The notes beneath the pieces are model-generated. The model did not search any database and was not told where the DNA came from. It was given only the letters and a program-made list of their open reading frames with translations. The position numbers and the translations under genes are program-made. A DNA stretch of 64,000 bases from Oscillospiraceae bacterium (GTDB taxonomy: Bacteria > Bacillota > Clostridia > UBA1212). The DNA lies in contig SVJA01000004.1 of NCBI GenBank assembly GCA_015069195.1, forward strand, positions 10,978 through 74,977. The letters run 5' to 3'. Of this stretch, positions 28,661-56,206 are shown piece by piece. Position 1 is the first letter of the stretch, and each line of letters opens with the position of its first letter.

Positions 28661-28737
28661 AAAATTCTACAGGGGCTATGTAAAATTATGGTTTACGTTC
28701 CGTAAAAAAAATTTTACATAGCCCCTGTAGAATTTTT
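28661..28737. terminator. Long perfect hairpin (~27-bp arms) directly after the ABC ATPase gene; probable bidirectional terminator and first part of the composite element
   Basis: GAAAATTCTACAGGGGCTATGTAAAATT - loop ATGGTTTACGTTCCGTAAAAA - AATTTTACATAGCCCCTGTAGAATTTTTTC. Confidence 0.7.
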
Positions 28738-28770: not shown

Positions 28771-28799
28771 TTGACACGATTTTTTGAGTAAGTTAATAT
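28771..28799 (+). promoter_or_regulatory. Sigma-A promoter TTGACA-17-TAATAT driving the small RNA (copy A)
   Basis: TTGACA at 28771-28776, 17-nt spacer, TAATAT at 28794-28799. The conserved RNA body starts 8 nt later. Confidence 0.6.
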
Positions 28800-28805
28800 A
28801 CTAAA

Positions 28806-28902
28806 AAGGGCATTGCCTGAAACGGTTATGCTCCTTGGAAGATTATTTTAGGGAATGGCTGCGTTCGTTGGTAAAATTATAGAGCGCAGTCATTTTTGTT
28901 GG
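28806..28902 (+). ncRNA. Candidate ~95-nt small RNA (copy A); putative type I antitoxin convergently overlapping a BsrG-like toxin gene
   Basis: Bounded by a consensus promoter and a 3' hairpin GCTGCG...CGCAGT plus U-run (CATTTTTGTT). About 80% identical to a second promoter-plus-terminator unit at 52726-52824. Contains the anti-SD-like UGCUCCUUGG. Confidence 0.55.
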
Positions 28903-28973
28903 CTTTTATAAAAAATTATAAAGATAAGTTCTAATATGTTAAGTGTGATCATTAGAGTTTCGTATGTGCTCAT
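28890..28973 (-). CDS. 27-aa hydrophobic peptide MSTYETLMITLNILELIFIIFYKSQQK; candidate type I toxin (BsrG-like)
   Basis: ATG preceded by GGAGGTGA with 8-nt spacing. Single TM helix plus a polar SQQK tail. Its 3' end overlaps the plus-strand RNA 3' end by 13 nt. Resembles B. subtilis BsrG (MTVYESLMIMINF...SSQKKK, recalled from memory). Confidence 0.5.
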   Translation of the reverse strand: MSTYETLMITLNILELIFIIFYKSQQK

Positions 28974-29176
28974 GCCAATCACCTCCTCTACGTCGGTGTG
29001 GACTTCATGACATTCGTTATGGCACAAAACCATCACTCACTCATTTCGTCACGCTTTCTTTTCGCAAAAAGTCACGCTCTGCAAACCTGTTCAGTTGTAA
29101 ACGCCTTCACAACGGTTTGCTGTCGCTACCAACTTTTTACGACTGAAAGGAGTAACCCAACCGACAAATATTCTAA

Positions 29177-29258
29177 CCCCAAACAGAACGCTGAAGGAAT
29201 ATTCTTTTTACGGACAAAGGACGTAAAAAGAATATTCCTTCAGCGTTCTGTTTGGGGG
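29177..29258. repeat. Perfect palindrome with 34-bp arms and 13-nt loop, abutting the pckA -35
   Basis: CCCCAAACAGAACGCTGAAGGAATATTCTTTTTA - CGGACAAAGGACG - exact reverse complement. The apex reads TTTACG..CGTAAA, as in two other long hairpins. Confidence 0.65.
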
Positions 29259-29287
29259 TTGACAACCAACCCAAAAAAACATAAAAT
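29259..29287 (+). promoter_or_regulatory. pckA promoter TTGACA-17-TAAAAT
   Basis: TTGACA at 29259-29264, 17-nt spacer ACCAACCCAAAAAAACA, TAAAAT at 29282-29287. Confidence 0.6.
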
Positions 29288-36616: not shown

Positions 36617-36697
36617 AAATCTCCGTAGGTACAACAAAATATTATGGTTTACTTCTTACGGTCGTAAAATAGTATTTTGCTGTACCTACGGAGATTT
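36617..36697. terminator. Long near-perfect hairpin (~27-bp arms); second member of the hairpin family
   Basis: AAATCTCCGTAGGTACAACAAAATATT - loop ATGGTTTACTTCTTACGGTCGTAAAA - TAGTATTTTGCTGTACCTACGGAGATTTT. The loop shares ATGGTTTAC...CGTAAAA with the 28661 hairpin. Confidence 0.6.
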
Positions 36698-36817
36698 TGC
36701 TTAAATTATAAAAGTGTTGTTTAGTACCTATGGCTCTAAAAATAACTCTGTATATATTTATCAGATGTTTTACGAGGGCTTACAGTTTTTTCCATTTATG
36801 TAATTTTATTATCATTT

Positions 36818-36893
36818 ATGACGATTTTGAACGCAGTCATTTTGTTTGATTTTGGCGAAACAGTAAAATGATAGGTTTTAAAACGTAAAGCAT
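36818..36893. pseudogene. Degenerate third copy of the RNA/toxin module: promoter fragment fused directly to the RNA 3' terminator, plus an 18-aa toxin remnant on the minus strand
   Basis: TGACGATTTTGA matches the copy-A -35 region, then GAACGCAGTCATTTTGTTTGATTTT matches the copy-B 3' end. The minus strand encodes MLYVLKPIILLFRQNQTK*, ending like the toxin (..QQK*), with no RBS. Confidence 0.4.
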
Positions 36894-36907
36894 AATTGCC
36901 GGTATTT

Positions 36908-36920
36908 GTATATACGGATA
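36908..36920 (-). repeat. Degenerate partial duplicate of the tRNA-Leu 3' end (GTCCTGTTATCCG), 190 bp from the intact gene, same orientation
   Basis: CGGATAACAGGAC occurs at 36908-36920 and again at 37110-37122 inside the tRNA; the typical signature of an att-site duplication. Confidence 0.45.
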
Positions 36921-37062
36921 ACAGGACTGCGACTCGCCTGGAATGATTAAGGCTCGCTGCATAAGTTCGACATAGCCGTTCAACCTTCGCTGACACTCGG
37001 TTTCACGGTTTCTCACAAATTGAACCTTTACGGTTCTGCGTCCTGTTTATGAACTGATATTA

Positions 37063-37104
37063 AAATGTACAGGCACTACCTAACGGCAGTGCCTGTACAT
37101 TTTA
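37063..37104 (-). terminator. Hairpin terminator downstream of tRNA-Leu
   Basis: AAAATGTACAGGCACT-gccgttaggt-AGTGCCTGTACATTTT. Confidence 0.6.
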
Positions 37105-37107
37105 ATA

Positions 37108-37190
37108 TGCGGATAACAGGACTTGAACCTGCATGAAGTTGCCCTCACTGGTACCTGAAACCAGCGCGTCTGCCATTCCGCCATATCCGC
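37108..37190 (-). tRNA. tRNA-Leu (anticodon CAG), class II with long variable arm
   Basis: Reverse complement GCGGATATGGCGGAATGGCAGACGCGCTGGTTTCAGGTACCAGTGAGGGCAACTTCATGCAGGTTCAAGTCCTGTTATCCGC-A. 7-bp acceptor stem, anticodon loop TTCAGGT, T-loop TTCAAGT. Confidence 0.85.
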
Positions 37191-38680: not shown

Positions 38681-40240
38681 ATGCCGGAGTTAATAAAAAA
38701 TTATATTAAAACAAGCAGACTTCTTTCTACTGAGGTTTTGAGAAGTGTTTTTGATTCCGATTATACTATTCCGGAGGTAATGCCGGAGATTAAACAAGTA
38801 TTGACCGTAGATGCGAAAGCATTTGTTGAAAAAACTTCTGTTGACGGTGACAGAGTTTCGGCGGAAGTTTTGATAAAATACACAGTTTTGTATATGCCGG
38901 AGGGCGAAGAGGTATCGGTAAAGAGCGTGTCGTTTAAAAATTCACAGACATTTTTGATAAATGCGCCGGGCATCGAAGAGGAGTTCAGGGCAGTTGTAAA
39001 GTGCTGTGTTGAACAGACTGAGGTTCTAAGTGCGGGCGGAAGAAAATTGTCGGTTCGATGCGTGGTAAAGTGTTCTTCACATATAGAGAATATTTCGGAA
39101 ATTGCCGTGCCCTGCGATATTTTGGGAATTGAAGACGTTCAGACACGAGATGATATTTGTCCGATGAATGTGACGATTGAAAATCTGACCGATGTGCTTG
39201 ATTTGAAAGAGCGCATCTCATTGCCGGTCGGAAAAGACCCAATTTACAGAGTAATAAAAAGCAACGCATCGATTTCGGATATTACATACTCCGTCGCTTC
39301 GAATGAATTGACTGTAAAGGGTATTTTAAATGTGACAACTCTTTACGAGGCGGACGGTGTGACAAAGGATTTGCAGGTTATGGAAAGTGAAGTGCCTTTC
39401 AGCGAGGTAATTTTCGTGGAAAATGACAGCGACACACTTGATTGGAGCATAGATTATTCACTTGTTTCATTTTGCCTTGATGCCGAAGAGGATGCAGACG
39501 GTGAAAAACGAGTTCTGTGCATAGTATCTTCAATTAAATTTGATGTGACGTCTTCTGAAAATGTGCCGGTTAAAATGATGACGGATGCGTATTCACTTTC
39601 GTGTGCATTTGACCTCTCTCGCAAAAATTTTGACGTGTATACAAAGTGCGGAGATCTTATGTCTCAGTTCGTTCTTAAAAATGCGGTGAGTGTGCCGGAG
39701 GGCTTCCCTGCTATCGCAGAAATTGTAAACCTTGATGGTCAGATAGGTCAGATGGAAGTTACCGCGGAAGATGGCGGCGCAATTATTGAGGGCGCAGTTG
39801 TCTGCAACATTCTTTATCTTGCAAAAGACGCTGAAAGTCCGATCGCATCATTTACCGAGCAAATTCCGTTCGCTCAGAAAATCGACCGCCGCGATATAAC
39901 ACCGGAAACATTGATAAACCTTAATCTAAACGTAAATCATACTTCGTACAGTTTGCTTTCTCCAACTGAAACTGAGCTCAGAATTGCACTTTCGGCACAG
40001 GGCGAAGCTCTCAATGCTCAACCGATAAATATGATAAGCGATGTCGGAACAGTTTACGAACTTGACGCAAATGCCGCAAACCGTGCATCAATTTTGATTT
40101 ACGTTGTACAGCCGGGAGATACAATGTGGAAAATCGCAAAACGTTACAATGCACCGATTGAAATTCTGAAATCAATAAATGATATAGAAAATGCCGATTT
40201 GATTCTGCCGGGACAGAAATTATTAATCCCTCGCAGCTGA
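38681..40240 (+). CDS. LysM-domain protein with large DUF3794/SPOCS-like N-terminal region (SipL/SpoVID-like sporulation protein)
   Basis: C-terminal LysM YVVQPGDTMWKIAKRYNAPIEILKSINDIENADLILPGQKLLIP. N-terminal repeated beta-rich region. Adjacent to the cotS-like gene. Confidence 0.7.
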   Translation: MPELIKNYIKTSRLLSTEVLRSVFDSDYTIPEVMPEIKQVLTVDAKAFVEKTSVDGDRVSAEVLIKYTVLYMPEGEEVSVKSVSFKNSQTFLINAPGIEEEFRAVVKCCVEQTEVLSAGGRKLSVRCVVKCSSHIENISEIAVPCDILGIEDVQTRDDICPMNVTIENLTDVLDLKERISLPVGKDPIYRVIKSNASISDITYSVASNELTVKGILNVTTLYEADGVTKDLQVMESEVPFSEVIFVENDSDTLDWSIDYSLVSFCLDAEEDADGEKRVLCIVSSIKFDVTSSENVPVKMMTDAYSLSCAFDLSRKNFDVYTKCGDLMSQFVLKNAVSVPEGFPAIAEIVNLDGQIGQMEVTAEDGGAIIEGAVVCNILYLAKDAESPIASFTEQIPFAQKIDRRDITPETLINLNLNVNHTSYSLLSPTETELRIALSAQGEALNAQPINMISDVGTVYELDANAANRASILIYVVQPGDTMWKIAKRYNAPIEILKSINDIENADLILPGQKLLIPRS

Positions 40241-40313
40241 CAAAAAGCGTGGCGGTGAAAAAAGGGCGAAGGCAAAGCCTTCGATATTTTTCACTGCCAC
40301 GCTTTTTGTCAGC
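40236..40313. terminator. Long inverted repeat terminator after the LysM gene
   Basis: GCTGACAAAAAGCGTGGCGGTGAAAAA...TTTTTCACTGCCACGCTTTTTGTCAGC. Confidence 0.75.
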
Positions 40314-40410
40314 TTAGTTGGGGAAGAGGAGGAGTGAAGGCGGAACTTTCGATGTTTTGTTTGACAATAAGTTTGACTGCATTTAGTATATAACCGTGGA
40401 GGGATTCAGT

Positions 40411-45492: not shown

Positions 45493-45507
45493 TTTTATCA
45501 AAAATAT

Positions 45508-45557
45508 GACAAAACGACGCGGCAACCATCAAAGGATGGTTGCCGCGTCGTTTTGTC
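45508..45557. terminator. Bidirectional terminator between the hydrogenase-like gene and the M23 peptidase gene
   Basis: GACAAAACGACGCGGCAACCATcaaaggATGGTTGCCGCGTCGTTTTGTC. Confidence 0.75.
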
Positions 45558-45558
45558 A

Positions 45559-46398
45559 TCATCCTACCGAGGTTGCCGTAGGTTGCATAATATTTATAGT
45601 TGAAGTAGGCTTTGAAGTGGCTGTGGGAGTTGTAGTTGAAGTTGAAGTAGGTGAAGGGGTGGAACTGTCGGAATCTTCTGCATCAGATGCATCCGCCGAA
45701 GTTTCTTTCGGGAAGAACAATGTCGGGTCGACTTTCTTGCCGTTTTGGATTACTTCAAAGTGAAGATGTGTTCCTGTTTCTTTTTCGCAGAAAATCGTAT
45801 CACCCAAAGTTCCGAGAACCGAGCCTGTTGTCACCTGTTTGCCGACTGTAAGATCATTCATCGCTGCAATTCCGCAGTAAATAGTCTTTGTTCCGTTTCC
45901 GTTATCAATGATAATCGTTGTTCCGTAAAGCGGGTCGGACTTTATATCGATGACAGTTCCTGTCACTGCGCACTTAACATCTTCTCCCTTTTTGCCTGCA
46001 ATATCGATTGCCGGATGAACTTTCCATTCCTTGAGTGTCTTGTTGTAAACGAGTTTTTTATCGGAAAATTCAACGAGTATTTTGCCCGAGACCGGCTTTG
46101 CGAGAGTCAACTTTTCAGGCTCTGCCGTTCCCTGAGGTGCAGTTGCACTTGGCTTTACCGGTTTGGAAACGCTCGTACTTCCGCCGTTTGCCGAACTTTG
46201 CTGGCTGTCAGTGGATTGCGGCATAGATGCTGTCGGTATTAAATCCGCAGATACGGGATCTTTGTTCAGCAACGTAGATGTATCATCATTTGACTTGTGC
46301 TCAAGTATCGCAATTCCGGCAATACATACCGCAAAAACGCATACAATCAATATCAAATAATAACCGTTTGTTTTTAGAAATTTTTTCATGTATATCAA
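45559..46398 (-). CDS. M23 family metallopeptidase (LytM domain) with N-terminal TM anchor and Ser/Thr/Pro-rich linker; possibly SpoIIQ-like
   Basis: HPAIDIAG (HxxxD) and GTHLHFEV (HxH) motifs. TM segment YYLILIVCVFAVCIAGIAIL. Confidence 0.8.
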   Translation of the reverse strand: MIYMKKFLKTNGYYLILIVCVFAVCIAGIAILEHKSNDDTSTLLNKDPVSADLIPTASMPQSTDSQQSSANGGSTSVSKPVKPSATAPQGTAEPEKLTLAKPVSGKILVEFSDKKLVYNKTLKEWKVHPAIDIAGKKGEDVKCAVTGTVIDIKSDPLYGTTIIIDNGNGTKTIYCGIAAMNDLTVGKQVTTGSVLGTLGDTIFCEKETGTHLHFEVIQNGKKVDPTLFFPKETSADASDAEDSDSSTPSPTSTSTTTPTATSKPTSTINIMQPTATSVG

Positions 46399-51740: not shown

Positions 51741-52544
51741 TCAGGCGTTTTCGAGAATGAATTTTTCTATTACAAACGCGACTCCGTCATTTGCATTTGT
51801 TTCAGTTACAAAATCTGCGAGACTTTTTACATCGTCGGGTGCATTGCCCATAGCGACACCGAGGCCTGCCAGCTTTATCATTTCAACATCGTTGTAACCG
51901 TCGCCGATACAGATAATCTCTTCATTTTTTATACCGTAGTCTGCTGCAATGGCTTCTACCGCCGTAGCTTTTGATACAGTCGGGTCAAAGAATTCCAGAA
52001 ACTCGGGAGCCGTTCTGACACATGAAGATGTATTTCCGAAGAATGATTTCATTTCACTTAAATATGCGGTGATTTTCTCAGGCTCATCATACCAGACGAT
52101 TTTTGTGATGCCTGCATCTAATACAGGTGTCATATCGCTCAGAATCTCAGCTCGTCCGCGTGAATATCCCTCGTATATGCGCACATTGTCGTTATAGACA
52201 TTTGCGTAGAGTTTGCCGTTTGACCAGATGCAAAGAGTTGTGTTTCTCTTTAAGCCTTCCGAAATAACTTTTTCTGCAACATCTCTTTCAAATGCCTGTT
52301 TGAAAAGTAAATTGCCTTCGGGGAATTTTACAATCTCCGCACCGTTGCAAAGAATAACGGGGCTCTCAAGCGCGACAATTTCATCATAAATGTCAACGCC
52401 TGCAACGGCGCGACCTGTGGAAACCACCGTCAGTACGCCTTTTTCTTTTGCTTTCATAAGCGCGTCAAAGTTCCTTTTTGTAATGATTTTTTCGTGTGTT
52501 AAAAGTGTGCCGTCCATATCAACGGCGAGCATTTTGTATTTCAT
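51741..52544 (-). CDS. HAD-superfamily Cof-type hydrolase (sugar phosphatase)
   Basis: Start MKYKMLAVDMDGTLL (DxD motif I), motif IV GDGYNDVEMI. The upstream part of the track ORF has no coding signal. Confidence 0.8.
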   Translation of the reverse strand: MKYKMLAVDMDGTLLTHEKIITKRNFDALMKAKEKGVLTVVSTGRAVAGVDIYDEIVALESPVILCNGAEIVKFPEGNLLFKQAFERDVAEKVISEGLKRNTTLCIWSNGKLYANVYNDNVRIYEGYSRGRAEILSDMTPVLDAGITKIVWYDEPEKITAYLSEMKSFFGNTSSCVRTAPEFLEFFDPTVSKATAVEAIAADYGIKNEEIICIGDGYNDVEMIKLAGLGVAMGNAPDDVKSLADFVTETNANDGVAFVIEKFILENA

Positions 52545-52597
52545 AAAACTGCATATCCTCTGCTGTGATAAACTTACTTTAAAATAATACCACAAAA

Positions 52598-52661
52598 GGC
52601 TACCTGTGCAACAGTTAAAATCGACCCGATATCCGATTTTTGAACTGTCGCACAGGTAGCC
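52598..52661. repeat. Long hairpin (~27-bp arms, 2 mismatches) preceding RNA copy B
   Basis: GGCTACCTGTGCAACAGTTAAAATCG-acccgatatc-CGATTTTTGAACTGTCGCACAGGTAGCC. Confidence 0.55.
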
Positions 52662-52689
52662 TTTACCAAGAATGTCATTCAAAATGTAT

Positions 52690-52718
52690 TTGACAGCAAA
52701 ATAACATCAAAGTTATAT
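52690..52718 (+). promoter_or_regulatory. Promoter TTGACA-17-TTATAT of RNA copy B
   Basis: Same geometry as copy A. The conserved GGGCAT RNA start lies 9 nt downstream. Confidence 0.5.
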
Positions 52719-52725
52719 ATTTATA

Positions 52726-52824
52726 ATGGGCATGGTCTGAAAGGTTATGCTCCTTGGGTATTTTTTATTTGGGAATGGCTGCGTCTCTTATCTGAGTTGG
52801 AGGGCGCAGTCGTTTTGTTTGATT
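52726..52824 (+). ncRNA. Candidate small RNA, copy B (orphan antitoxin-like)
   Basis: GGGCATGGTCTGAAAGGTTATGCTCCTTGG...GGGAATGGCTGCGTC...GGGCGCAGTCGTTTTGTTTGATTT; about 80% identity to copy A, including the terminator. No intact toxin ORF on the opposite strand. Confidence 0.5.
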
Positions 52825-53054
52825 TATGTAAAGGCTGACTCGCAAGAAAATAATGCCATAAGCGTTTCTGTTTGTAAATGATGTCAAATATTTCCCGAGA
52901 AATATTCCGAAAGCAGTATATAAGATTAAACATAAATATACACTTGAATAACAGGCACATTTAGTATAAAATAACAAAAGTAATACATTATGTAGTTTTT
53001 TTTTACAGTAAGATAAGGGTTAGTTATAACATAAGTTACGAAGGAAAGAGTAAA

Positions 53055-56095: not shown

Positions 56096-56206
56096 TTAAG
56101 CTAATTCATAGGAAACATTATTCTCCTTTCTAAAAATGCAAGAACCCGACGCAATGATAAAACATACATTGCGTCGGGTTCTTGCATTAAATCATTTTAC
56201 GATTAA

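Follow-up and report, generated by a model that had tools for sequence, protein, structure and literature searches.

Here, we present an analysis of a small RNA (sRNA)-like unit, copy B, at positions 52690-52832 on the plus strand of a 64,000-nt stretch of DNA (the window) from an Oscillospiraceae bacterium (GCA_015069195.1, contig SVJA01000004.1, positions 10,978-74,977, forward). We conclude that copy B is very probably the antitoxin half of a convergent type I toxin-antitoxin (TA) module with overlapping 3' ends, the toxin half of which has been deleted. The window contains a second sRNA unit, copy A, that still faces a putative toxin open reading frame (ORF). Moreover, an intact 28-aa toxin is present at exactly the locus of copy B in a related species (locus L008), which identifies copy B as an antitoxin-type sRNA gene that lacks its toxin.

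A BLAST search of the window with copy B returned copy A (28790-28912; 72.8% identity over 125 nt, E=3.8e-11) and an additional 21-nt match at 36832-36852. The RNA bodies of A and B agree at 79 of 99 residues (80%, or 73.8% when gap columns are counted). Both copies contain exact matches to GGTTATGCTCCTTGG (52743-52757, which includes CTCCTTGG) and GGGAATGGCTGCGT, perfect blocks of 15 nt and 14 nt are common to them, and the 15-nt block GGUUAUGCUCCUUGG does not vary among A, B, and L008. R1, a covariance model built for the sRNA and searched over the 64-kb window and all fetched loci, scored copy B at 109 bits (E=1.6e-21) and copy A at 105.7 bits; the next-best match in the window, at 18.9 bits, was an ordinary terminator. 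Judged from these alignments, the similarity between the two sRNAs is real and far beyond chance. The BLAST and R1 scores confirm the original prediction of a second sRNA unit in this region, and its claims of about 80% identity over the RNA body, including the shared segment, and of a common terminator also hold. The elements of copy B are as follows.

52690-52718, plus strand: sRNA-B promoter region, read from the sequence as −35 TTGACA (52690-95), a 17-nt spacer, and TTATAT (52713-18) as the −10 equivalent.
52722-52727, plus strand: perfect TATAAT hexamer in the sequence just upstream of the RNA body, 9 nt downstream of TTATAT and without a usable −35.
52728-52824, plus strand: sRNA-B body of about 97 nt matched by R1, with a 5' stem-loop, a U-rich linker, a long terminator stem-loop, and a U tract.
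52750-52757, plus strand: CUCCUUGG, an anti-Shine-Dalgarno (SD)-like motif within the 15-nt block, partly buried in the 3' arm of stem-loop 1.
52771-52824, plus strand: terminator, with the predicted stem GGGAAUGGCUGCGUCUC / GGAGGGCGCAGUCGUUUU (52771-52816) followed by a U-rich tail.

The fold of the RNA is preserved. sRNA-B has a minimum free energy (MFE) of −31 kcal/mol (z=−3.2), all 27 predicted pairs form, and every predicted helix is kept; across the three sequences (A, B, and L008), standard pairs occupy 97.5% of the pair cells. The terminator core GGCUGCG...CGCAGUC and the U tract are common to A and B, and the terminator loops of the two differ. The promoter geometry, which had been described as the same in both copies, is indeed shared with respect to the −35 TTGACA and the 17-nt spacer, but not with respect to the −10 box, where the A at position 2 is replaced by T in copy B (TTATAT vs. 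TAATAT in A and L008). In a rule-based scan for promoters (−35, spacer, and −10), the sRNA promoters of A and L008 were found, and no plus-strand promoter was found for B. Thus, among the parts of the sRNA half of a type I module, the body, the terminator, the −35, and the spacer of copy B are intact, while its −10 fails the scan rule. The TATAAT at 52722-27 could be a substitute −10, in which case transcription would start inside stem-loop 1.

The arrangement from which copy B would derive can be seen at copy A.

28771-28906, plus strand: copy A sRNA unit, with the promoter TTGACA-17-TAATAT (28771-28799) and the RNA body at 28808-28906.
28890-28973, minus strand: copy A toxin ORF MSTYETLMITLNILELIFIIFYKSQQK, 27 aa, hydrophobic, with the SD sequence GGAGGTG 6 nt upstream from the ATG.

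The stop codon of toxin A lies in the terminator stem of sRNA-A, within its 3' arm, and the two genes therefore converge and overlap at their 3' ends. With this layout, copy A is a credible type I TA pair of the 3'-overlapping kind, the toxin being putative. Presumably, the N-terminus of toxin A (MSTYExLM) and its basic C-terminus resemble those of TxpA and BsrG. Site A is identical in other samples of the window species; in the nearest fetched relatives (L016-18) we found no TA module and the spacer is unalignable, and L019 and L020 are of different synteny. The sole strong minus-strand promoter-like site near copy A, TTAACA-16-TATAAT (11/12), falls within the toxin coding sequence (CDS). In addition, an element, GGUUACUCCUUUC, that is similar to GGUUAUGCUCCUUGG of the sRNA is located ~180 nt upstream from the toxin-A start codon.

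The locus of copy B was fetched from relatives via the YhaO-like protein encoded downstream of copy B, and the spacer between the HAD-hydrolase gene and yhaO was compared by multiple alignment (A2) and by a pairwise alignment of the window and L008. YhaO of L008 is 83% identical to that of the window, and YhaO of L004, L005, and L006 84%. The spacer occurs in three states. The full module is present in L008, where an sRNA (R1 111 bits; promoter TTGACA-17-TAATAT) faces an intact 28-aa toxin ORF on the opposite strand, MSDYELITILLYFVEIILLVNFYINQKK, behind GGGGGTG; this toxin shares 44% identity with toxin A, and the DNA of L008 aligns to copy A through the sRNA, the CDS, and the SD sequence. The sRNA-only state is present in the window and in L001, L022, and L023, which are of the same species; the spacer is 100% identical in all four assemblies, sRNA-B is identical in L001, L022, and L023, and it is 85-87% identical to the L008 sRNA. 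In the empty state (L004, L005, and L006), the spacer contains neither sRNA nor toxin, while the right-hand flank is kept in all three and a long hairpin in L004 and L005, where the contigs extend far enough upstream. A hydrophobic ORF of <60 aa with a ribosome-binding site (RBS) lies opposite the sRNA at copy A and in L008. At copy B, in agreement with the reported lack of an intact toxin, there is no toxin-like ORF on that strand, and copy B is therefore a remnant of a module and not a module. In four assemblies, the antitoxin is present at the locus and the toxin ORF and its translation signals are absent, as defines a solo type I antitoxin.

What is left of the toxin half at copy B is listed here.

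52809-52832, minus strand: toxin remnant, seven C-terminal codons (LYINQTK) and then CGA, from alignment with L008 (NFYINQKK-stop) and copy A (FYKSQQK-stop).
52832-52833, no strand: deletion junction, from the pairwise alignment with L008 and the multiple alignment A2.
52850-52878, minus strand: promoter-like site TTTACA-17-CATTAT with an upstream TG, from the scan; the same site is found in the window, L008, and L004.
52595-52664, no strand: long hairpin (inverted repeat I7) with 26-nt arms and an 18-nt loop, between the start of the HAD-hydrolase gene and the sRNA unit.

The remnant lines up in frame with the stop codons of A and L008, and the stop codon is mutated in B (TGA to CGA). Approximately 165 nt of L008 (roughly 334-498) are missing in the window, comprising toxin codons 1-21, the SD sequence, and the 5' untranslated region (5'UTR). 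In L008, the TTTACA-17-CATTAT site is located directly upstream of the toxin 5'UTR; at copy B, the retained site would drive a non-coding transcript antisense to sRNA-B that ends at the hairpin. The arms of the hairpin (52595-52620 and 52639-52664) are 92% complementary, and on the minus strand the hairpin is followed by UUUUGUGG; based on these features, it is probably a terminator for minus-strand transcripts, i.e., the toxin mRNA or its remnant. The hairpin of ~27-bp arms that had been proposed to precede the unit is thus real, but it is not specific to it: the same hairpin is present in L008 (full) and in L004/L005 (empty). Because it is retained at an empty site and such hairpins are common in the window, we ruled it out as a TA-specific feature.

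These data also change the view of how the toxin was lost. That copy B is an orphan antitoxin is supported by the synteny with L008; however, the toxin was most simply lost by the ~165-nt deletion and not by gradual decay, as had been supposed. The peptide EIFDIIYKQK, which had been read as a faint echo of the toxin tail, stems from the wrong frame, and its position (about 52870-52899) falls in flanking DNA that overlaps the retained minus-strand promoter; this DNA is also present in empty-site relatives and in L008, which has the true toxin elsewhere. It was rejected as a toxin remnant, the true remnant being LYINQTK and CGA at 52809-52832.

The window species is an outgroup to L008 and L004 by YhaO identity, and the tree alone therefore leaves the direction of change unfixed. 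We favor a deletion over an insertion because the last codons of the toxin are still joined to the sRNA unit; because the full arrangement is also found at copy A, an unrelated site; because the toxin promoter-like site is kept in the window and L004 with nothing left to express; because the hairpin, which would end the toxin mRNA, is likewise retained; and because the junction in L009 resembles a separate toxin loss. The retained promoter-like site and hairpin argue that the orphan and the empty states are both deletion derivatives. L009 is from a different sample/run and its YhaO protein is the same as that of L008. Its contig starts (1-30) with GCAGTCACTTTTTTTGATTT joined to GTAAATG, i.e., the 3' arm of the sRNA terminator is joined directly to the right flank, and the junction lies between two TTTTTTGATTT direct repeats, which bracket the toxin in L008. 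Seen from this one contig end, the toxin would seem to have been deleted a second time, independently, within the L008 species. The L009 deletion would also take out the −10 of the toxin promoter.

We suggest that the intact module, as in copy A and L008, would function in the following way. The plus strand would give rise to an sRNA of ~100 nt, and the minus strand to a hydrophobic peptide of 27-28 aa, presumed to be toxic, that is translated from a strong SD sequence. The toxin mRNA would run through the sRNA gene to the long hairpin, giving it a 3'UTR that is fully complementary to the sRNA; by analogy to txpA/RatA and bsrG/SR4, formation of this duplex would lead to RNase III-dependent degradation of the toxin mRNA. 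After the ~165-nt deletion, the sRNA gene, seven toxin codons, the mutated stop codon, the toxin promoter, and the hairpin are left. Most likely, copy B today is a relic and no toxin is made from the locus. If transcribed, sRNA-B would pair mainly with the leftover non-coding antisense transcript, its only perfect partner; a secondary possibility is weak cross-pairing with the 3'UTR of the toxin-A mRNA.

In the Bacillus subtilis systems txpA/RatA, bsrG/SR4, bsrE/SR5, bsrH/as-bsrH, and yonT/SR6, the RNAs pair at their 3' ends over 100-140 nt (PMC6562991), and the duplexes promote toxin mRNA decay that is initiated by RNase III (PMC6562991; for the SR4 mechanism, PMC3834814). Copy A and L008 are similar to these systems in having a small hydrophobic toxin gene convergent with an antisense sRNA gene that has its own promoter and terminator, and in that the RNAs overlap by ~100 nt at their 3' ends; by analogy, RNase III-dependent decay would be expected here as well. 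They differ from them in that the sRNA has no Rfam match, toxin A gives a subthreshold Hol_Tox match and the L008 toxin none, the host is an uncultured Ruminococcaceae metagenome-assembled genome, the toxin is shorter (27-28 aa), and, at copy B, the toxin is gone. Given the lack of a match to any curated toxin or sRNA family, the module resembles the type I systems of Firmicutes in layout but is not filed in any family.

The orphan state at copy B has a published parallel in orz-only genomes. In more than 30% of Escherichia coli genomes, orz is found in the absence of zor, and expression of the orphan OrzP was demonstrated by Northern blot; a locus with the antitoxin alone is expected to do no harm, unlike one with the toxin alone (PMC11264685). 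As in the orz-only case, an antitoxin sRNA gene is retained where the cognate toxin ORF is absent, and orz-only is fixed in many genomes, also without the pairing region. In contrast to the 3'-end overlap in a Firmicute described here, zor/orz is proteobacterial and pairs via the toxin 5'UTR. Moreover, expression of OrzP has been demonstrated, whereas sRNA-B is known from its sequence and has a damaged −10 box; and here the full, orphan, and empty states are found at one syntenic site in related species.

Several observations weigh against our interpretation of copy B and of the module from which it would derive. With the three known sRNA sequences, covariation is not significant, and 138 of 500 shuffles reach the observed score. 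The −10 of copy B lacks the conserved A, so sRNA-B may be silent. Toxin A matches Pfam PF16935 Hol_Tox with 14.3 bits (E=0.038) over residues 1-17 only, i.e., under the gathering threshold of 23.3 bits; the L008 toxin has no Pfam Hol_Tox match, and an NCBIfam search with the toxin gave no match. The promoter scan did not identify a promoter for toxin A (window 28915-28942, minus strand, and 28975-29170). An Rfam 15 scan of the window at gathering thresholds returned tRNA only and no sRNA family, and DNA pattern scans of genome, metagenome, and viral collections gave chance matches only, in GC-rich coding DNA. Finally, a deletion at copy B and the insertion of a toxin cassette in L008 are distinguished by parsimony, and the right deletion ends of the window (52832/52833) and L004 (about 1197) coincide within ~3 nt. 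The coinciding ends could reflect stepwise losses or a recombination hot spot. They belong to a toxin-only loss in the window and a whole-module loss in L004, and are located just downstream of the predicted start of toxin transcription.

An alternative that we consider unlikely, but that fits a number of the data, is that sRNA-B has been kept by selection as a trans-acting antitoxin, either as a spare repressor of toxin A or as an anti-addiction shield against incoming modules. sRNA-B and the toxin-A mRNA are predicted to form a duplex of −112 kcal/mol, compared with −189 kcal/mol for the cognate sRNA-A and −55 ± 4 kcal/mol for mononucleotide-shuffled sRNAs, and an extended but imperfect pairing of sRNA-B with the 3'UTR of this mRNA is thus thermodynamically possible in the model. 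Trans-action of the duplicated RNA had been put forward originally, and the pairing predictions allow it for the toxin-A mRNA, with a duplex stronger than those of the shuffles, but do not favor it for the toxin ribosome-binding regions. The perfect 15-nt and 14-nt blocks in A and B and the intactness of all helices also favor the trans-acting antitoxin, as do the identical orphan state in four independent assemblies, the possibility that the toxin was lost twice with the sRNA kept (L009), and the documented expression of a solo type I antitoxin in E. coli (PMC11264685).

The conservation of sRNA-B can be read in two ways. The HAD-yhaO spacer (window 52540-53054 vs. L008 1-716) is 82-91% identical, while the four-fold degenerate sites of yhaO differ at 54%; this suggests strong constraint on the non-coding elements or a recent exchange of the spacer. 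sRNA-B itself is 87% identical to the L008 sRNA, which, compared with the 54% divergence at the yhaO sites, argues for a recent deletion or for constraint on the RNA. In favor of a selected antitoxin, sRNA-B is no more diverged than conserved flanking non-coding DNA, even though the synonymous sites of yhaO are near saturation. However, the whole spacer, and not just the sRNA, is similarly conserved; the conservation is therefore not specific to the sRNA, and the deletion may be recent. Other observations also argue against selection for action in trans. The −10 of B lacks the key A. The terminator loops, where first contact is usually made, are not the same in A and B. In most type I systems, the antitoxin acts on its cognate toxin only, and in Clostridioides difficile cross-protection was limited to one pair with three mismatches (PMC6563280), far fewer than the 20-26% divergence between sRNA-B and sRNA-A.

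The 5' domain of the sRNA was also considered as a route to action in trans. In Staphylococcus aureus, as cited in PMC6563280, SprA1AS of sprA1/SprA1AS is a cis-encoded antitoxin that acts in trans via a non-overlapping 5' domain. As far as that account goes, the system is similar to the one described here in its 3'-end overlap, and the motif CUCCUUGG in the 5' domain of our sRNA could reach the toxin RBS; it is different in that the pairing of CUCCUUGG is here no better than that of shuffled sRNAs and the motif is partly paired in stem-loop 1. For the pairing of CUCCUUGG with the toxin ribosome-binding regions, the fraction of shuffled sRNAs with an energy at or below the observed one was 0.3-0.9. 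Because shuffles do as well, anti-SD pairing in trans via CUCCUUGG was dropped as a mechanism.

A more elaborate version of selection, to which we give a small probability, is that after recurrent toxin loss (in the window lineage and in L009) the orphan was selected as a toxin-A repressor or for immunity. The 5' domain of the sRNA may mimic the toxin 5'UTR, as in L008, with both competing for a site in the 3'UTR, which would amount to a hok-like fold-back switch run by a 3'-overlapping antitoxin. In hok/sok, the toxin mRNA folds back by long-range pairing between its 5' and 3' ends. The L008 module is similar in that its toxin 5'UTR resembles the sRNA 5' domain and a fold-back with 34 long-range pairs is predicted; it is different in that the fold-back is predicted for L008 alone, is absent for copy A, and is inapplicable to copy B, in which the 5'UTR is deleted. 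In L008 (420-509, minus strand), the toxin 5'UTR GGGCAUUGCCC...CAUCCUCCUUGGGUGUUUUUUAU matches the sRNA 5' domain in R1 with 18 bits (E about 0.09). In the MFE structure of the full L008 toxin mRNA, the long-range pairs connect nt 18-63 with nt 245-283 of the 3'UTR, and if the 5' part is folded alone, the 5'UTR motif sequesters the SD sequence. For copy A, none of these features was found, neither the 5'UTR resemblance nor the SD sequestration nor the fold-back, the mRNA having been folded without a known transcription start.

It is also quite improbable that the sRNA-only state is original, the toxin segment in L008 a later insertion, and copy B a unit that never had a toxin. In keeping with this scenario, the polarity is not set by the tree, and the missing segment ends on the right where L004 places the edge of the module. 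However, seven in-register toxin codons and the former stop codon are contiguous with the sRNA unit in B, copy A, at an unrelated site, likewise combines an sRNA with a toxin and is homologous over its whole length, the L008 toxin promoter is present in the window and L004, and L009 shows that deletion between short repeats occurs.

The downstream gene yhaO has a promoter of its own, distinct from the sRNA unit.

52944-52972, plus strand: yhaO promoter TTGAAT-17-TAAAAT, from the scan; conserved in L004-L009, largely so in L007.

This promoter is followed by a conserved yhaO leader of ~80 nt (52973-53054) that is kept even in L007, a relative with 74% identity. The promoter and the leader are also present in relatives without the sRNA and are, thus, independent of the sRNA unit, arguing against the suggested regulation of yhaO/yhaN by the sRNA. 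Very improbable, finally, is that the unit is an independent regulatory sRNA or cis leader in which CUCCUUGG blocks other RBSs, e.g., those of yhaO/yhaN, the small ORF at A being incidental: the invariance of GGUUAUGCUCCUUGG in A, B, and L008 is not needed by a purely cis-antisense pair and copy B persists without a toxin, but the A and L008 sRNAs each face a homologous, SD-led, hydrophobic ORF of 27/28 aa in unrelated contexts, yhaO has its promoter and leader in relatives without the sRNA, the strong sRNA-B terminator ends about 120 nt before the yhaO promoter, and the predicted pairing of the sRNAs with the toxin ribosome-binding regions does not surpass that of shuffles, with the motif half buried in stem-loop 1.

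As for further copies, for which a covariance-model search had been envisaged, only A and B were found in the window by R1, and the L008 sRNA outside the species; among all fetched loci, the other matches were the same-species copies of B and the weak match to the L008 toxin 5'UTR. Rfam scans of both loci by E-value matched the long hairpins only, as spurious miRNA precursors. A phmmer search with a 48-aa extended toxin ORF against 1.8 billion representatives gave two irrelevant matches, both to the junk N-terminal extension, the 27-aa toxin being too short as a query; alignment of extended toxin ORFs yielded no candidates. The toxin gave no match in a tblastn search of phages and plasmids, and it was not found among called proteins. 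One tentative additional copy is present in the window.

36796-36915, minus strand: copy C, a possible third and fully decayed module with an sRNA terminator 3' arm and a toxin-like tail ending in IMLYVLKPIILLFRQNQTK and a stop codon.

Copy C lacks a start codon, an SD sequence, and the 5' half of the sRNA, and it was not detected by R1. Its terminator arm (36832-36852) is identical to copy B at 20 of 21 nt. The copy C region (36796-36927) is directly adjacent to an exact 13-nt copy (36915-36927) of the 3' end (37110-37122) of tRNA-Leu(CAG) (region 37108-37190). On the basis of this repeat, a mobile element may have left an att-like scar here.

Long near-perfect hairpins with arms of 22-41 nt are found in many intergenic regions of the window, i.e., at 28661-28736, 29172-29262, 36617-36697, 37057-37108, 40235-40314, 45506-45559, 52595-52664, and 56135-56188. 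The tips of the hairpins left of copies A and C share TTATGGTTTAC and a TTTACG...CGTAAA inner stem, while their outer stems differ, and the hairpin right of copy A likewise has TTTACG-9-CGTAAA. Based on these shared tips, the hairpins may be homologous elements with compensated stems.

Altogether, the orphan at copy B is a tidy and fairly ordinary example of module decay that will not surprise a specialist, and the understanding of type I systems would change only if sRNA-B were found to be expressed and to act in trans. Type I TA modules are difficult to detect, and hardly any work has been done on them in uncultured Clostridia from the gut and rumen. In the present case, a family outside Rfam and Pfam is caught in the complete, the antitoxin-only, and the empty state at one syntenic site, and the same 64-kb window holds an intact paralogue (copy A) and a probable fully decayed copy (copy C). 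Copy B would add a Firmicute example with 3' overlap to the single documented case of a solo type I antitoxin, orz-only in E. coli, and the series pictures the decay of a module in which the toxin is lost first and the antitoxin is tolerated.

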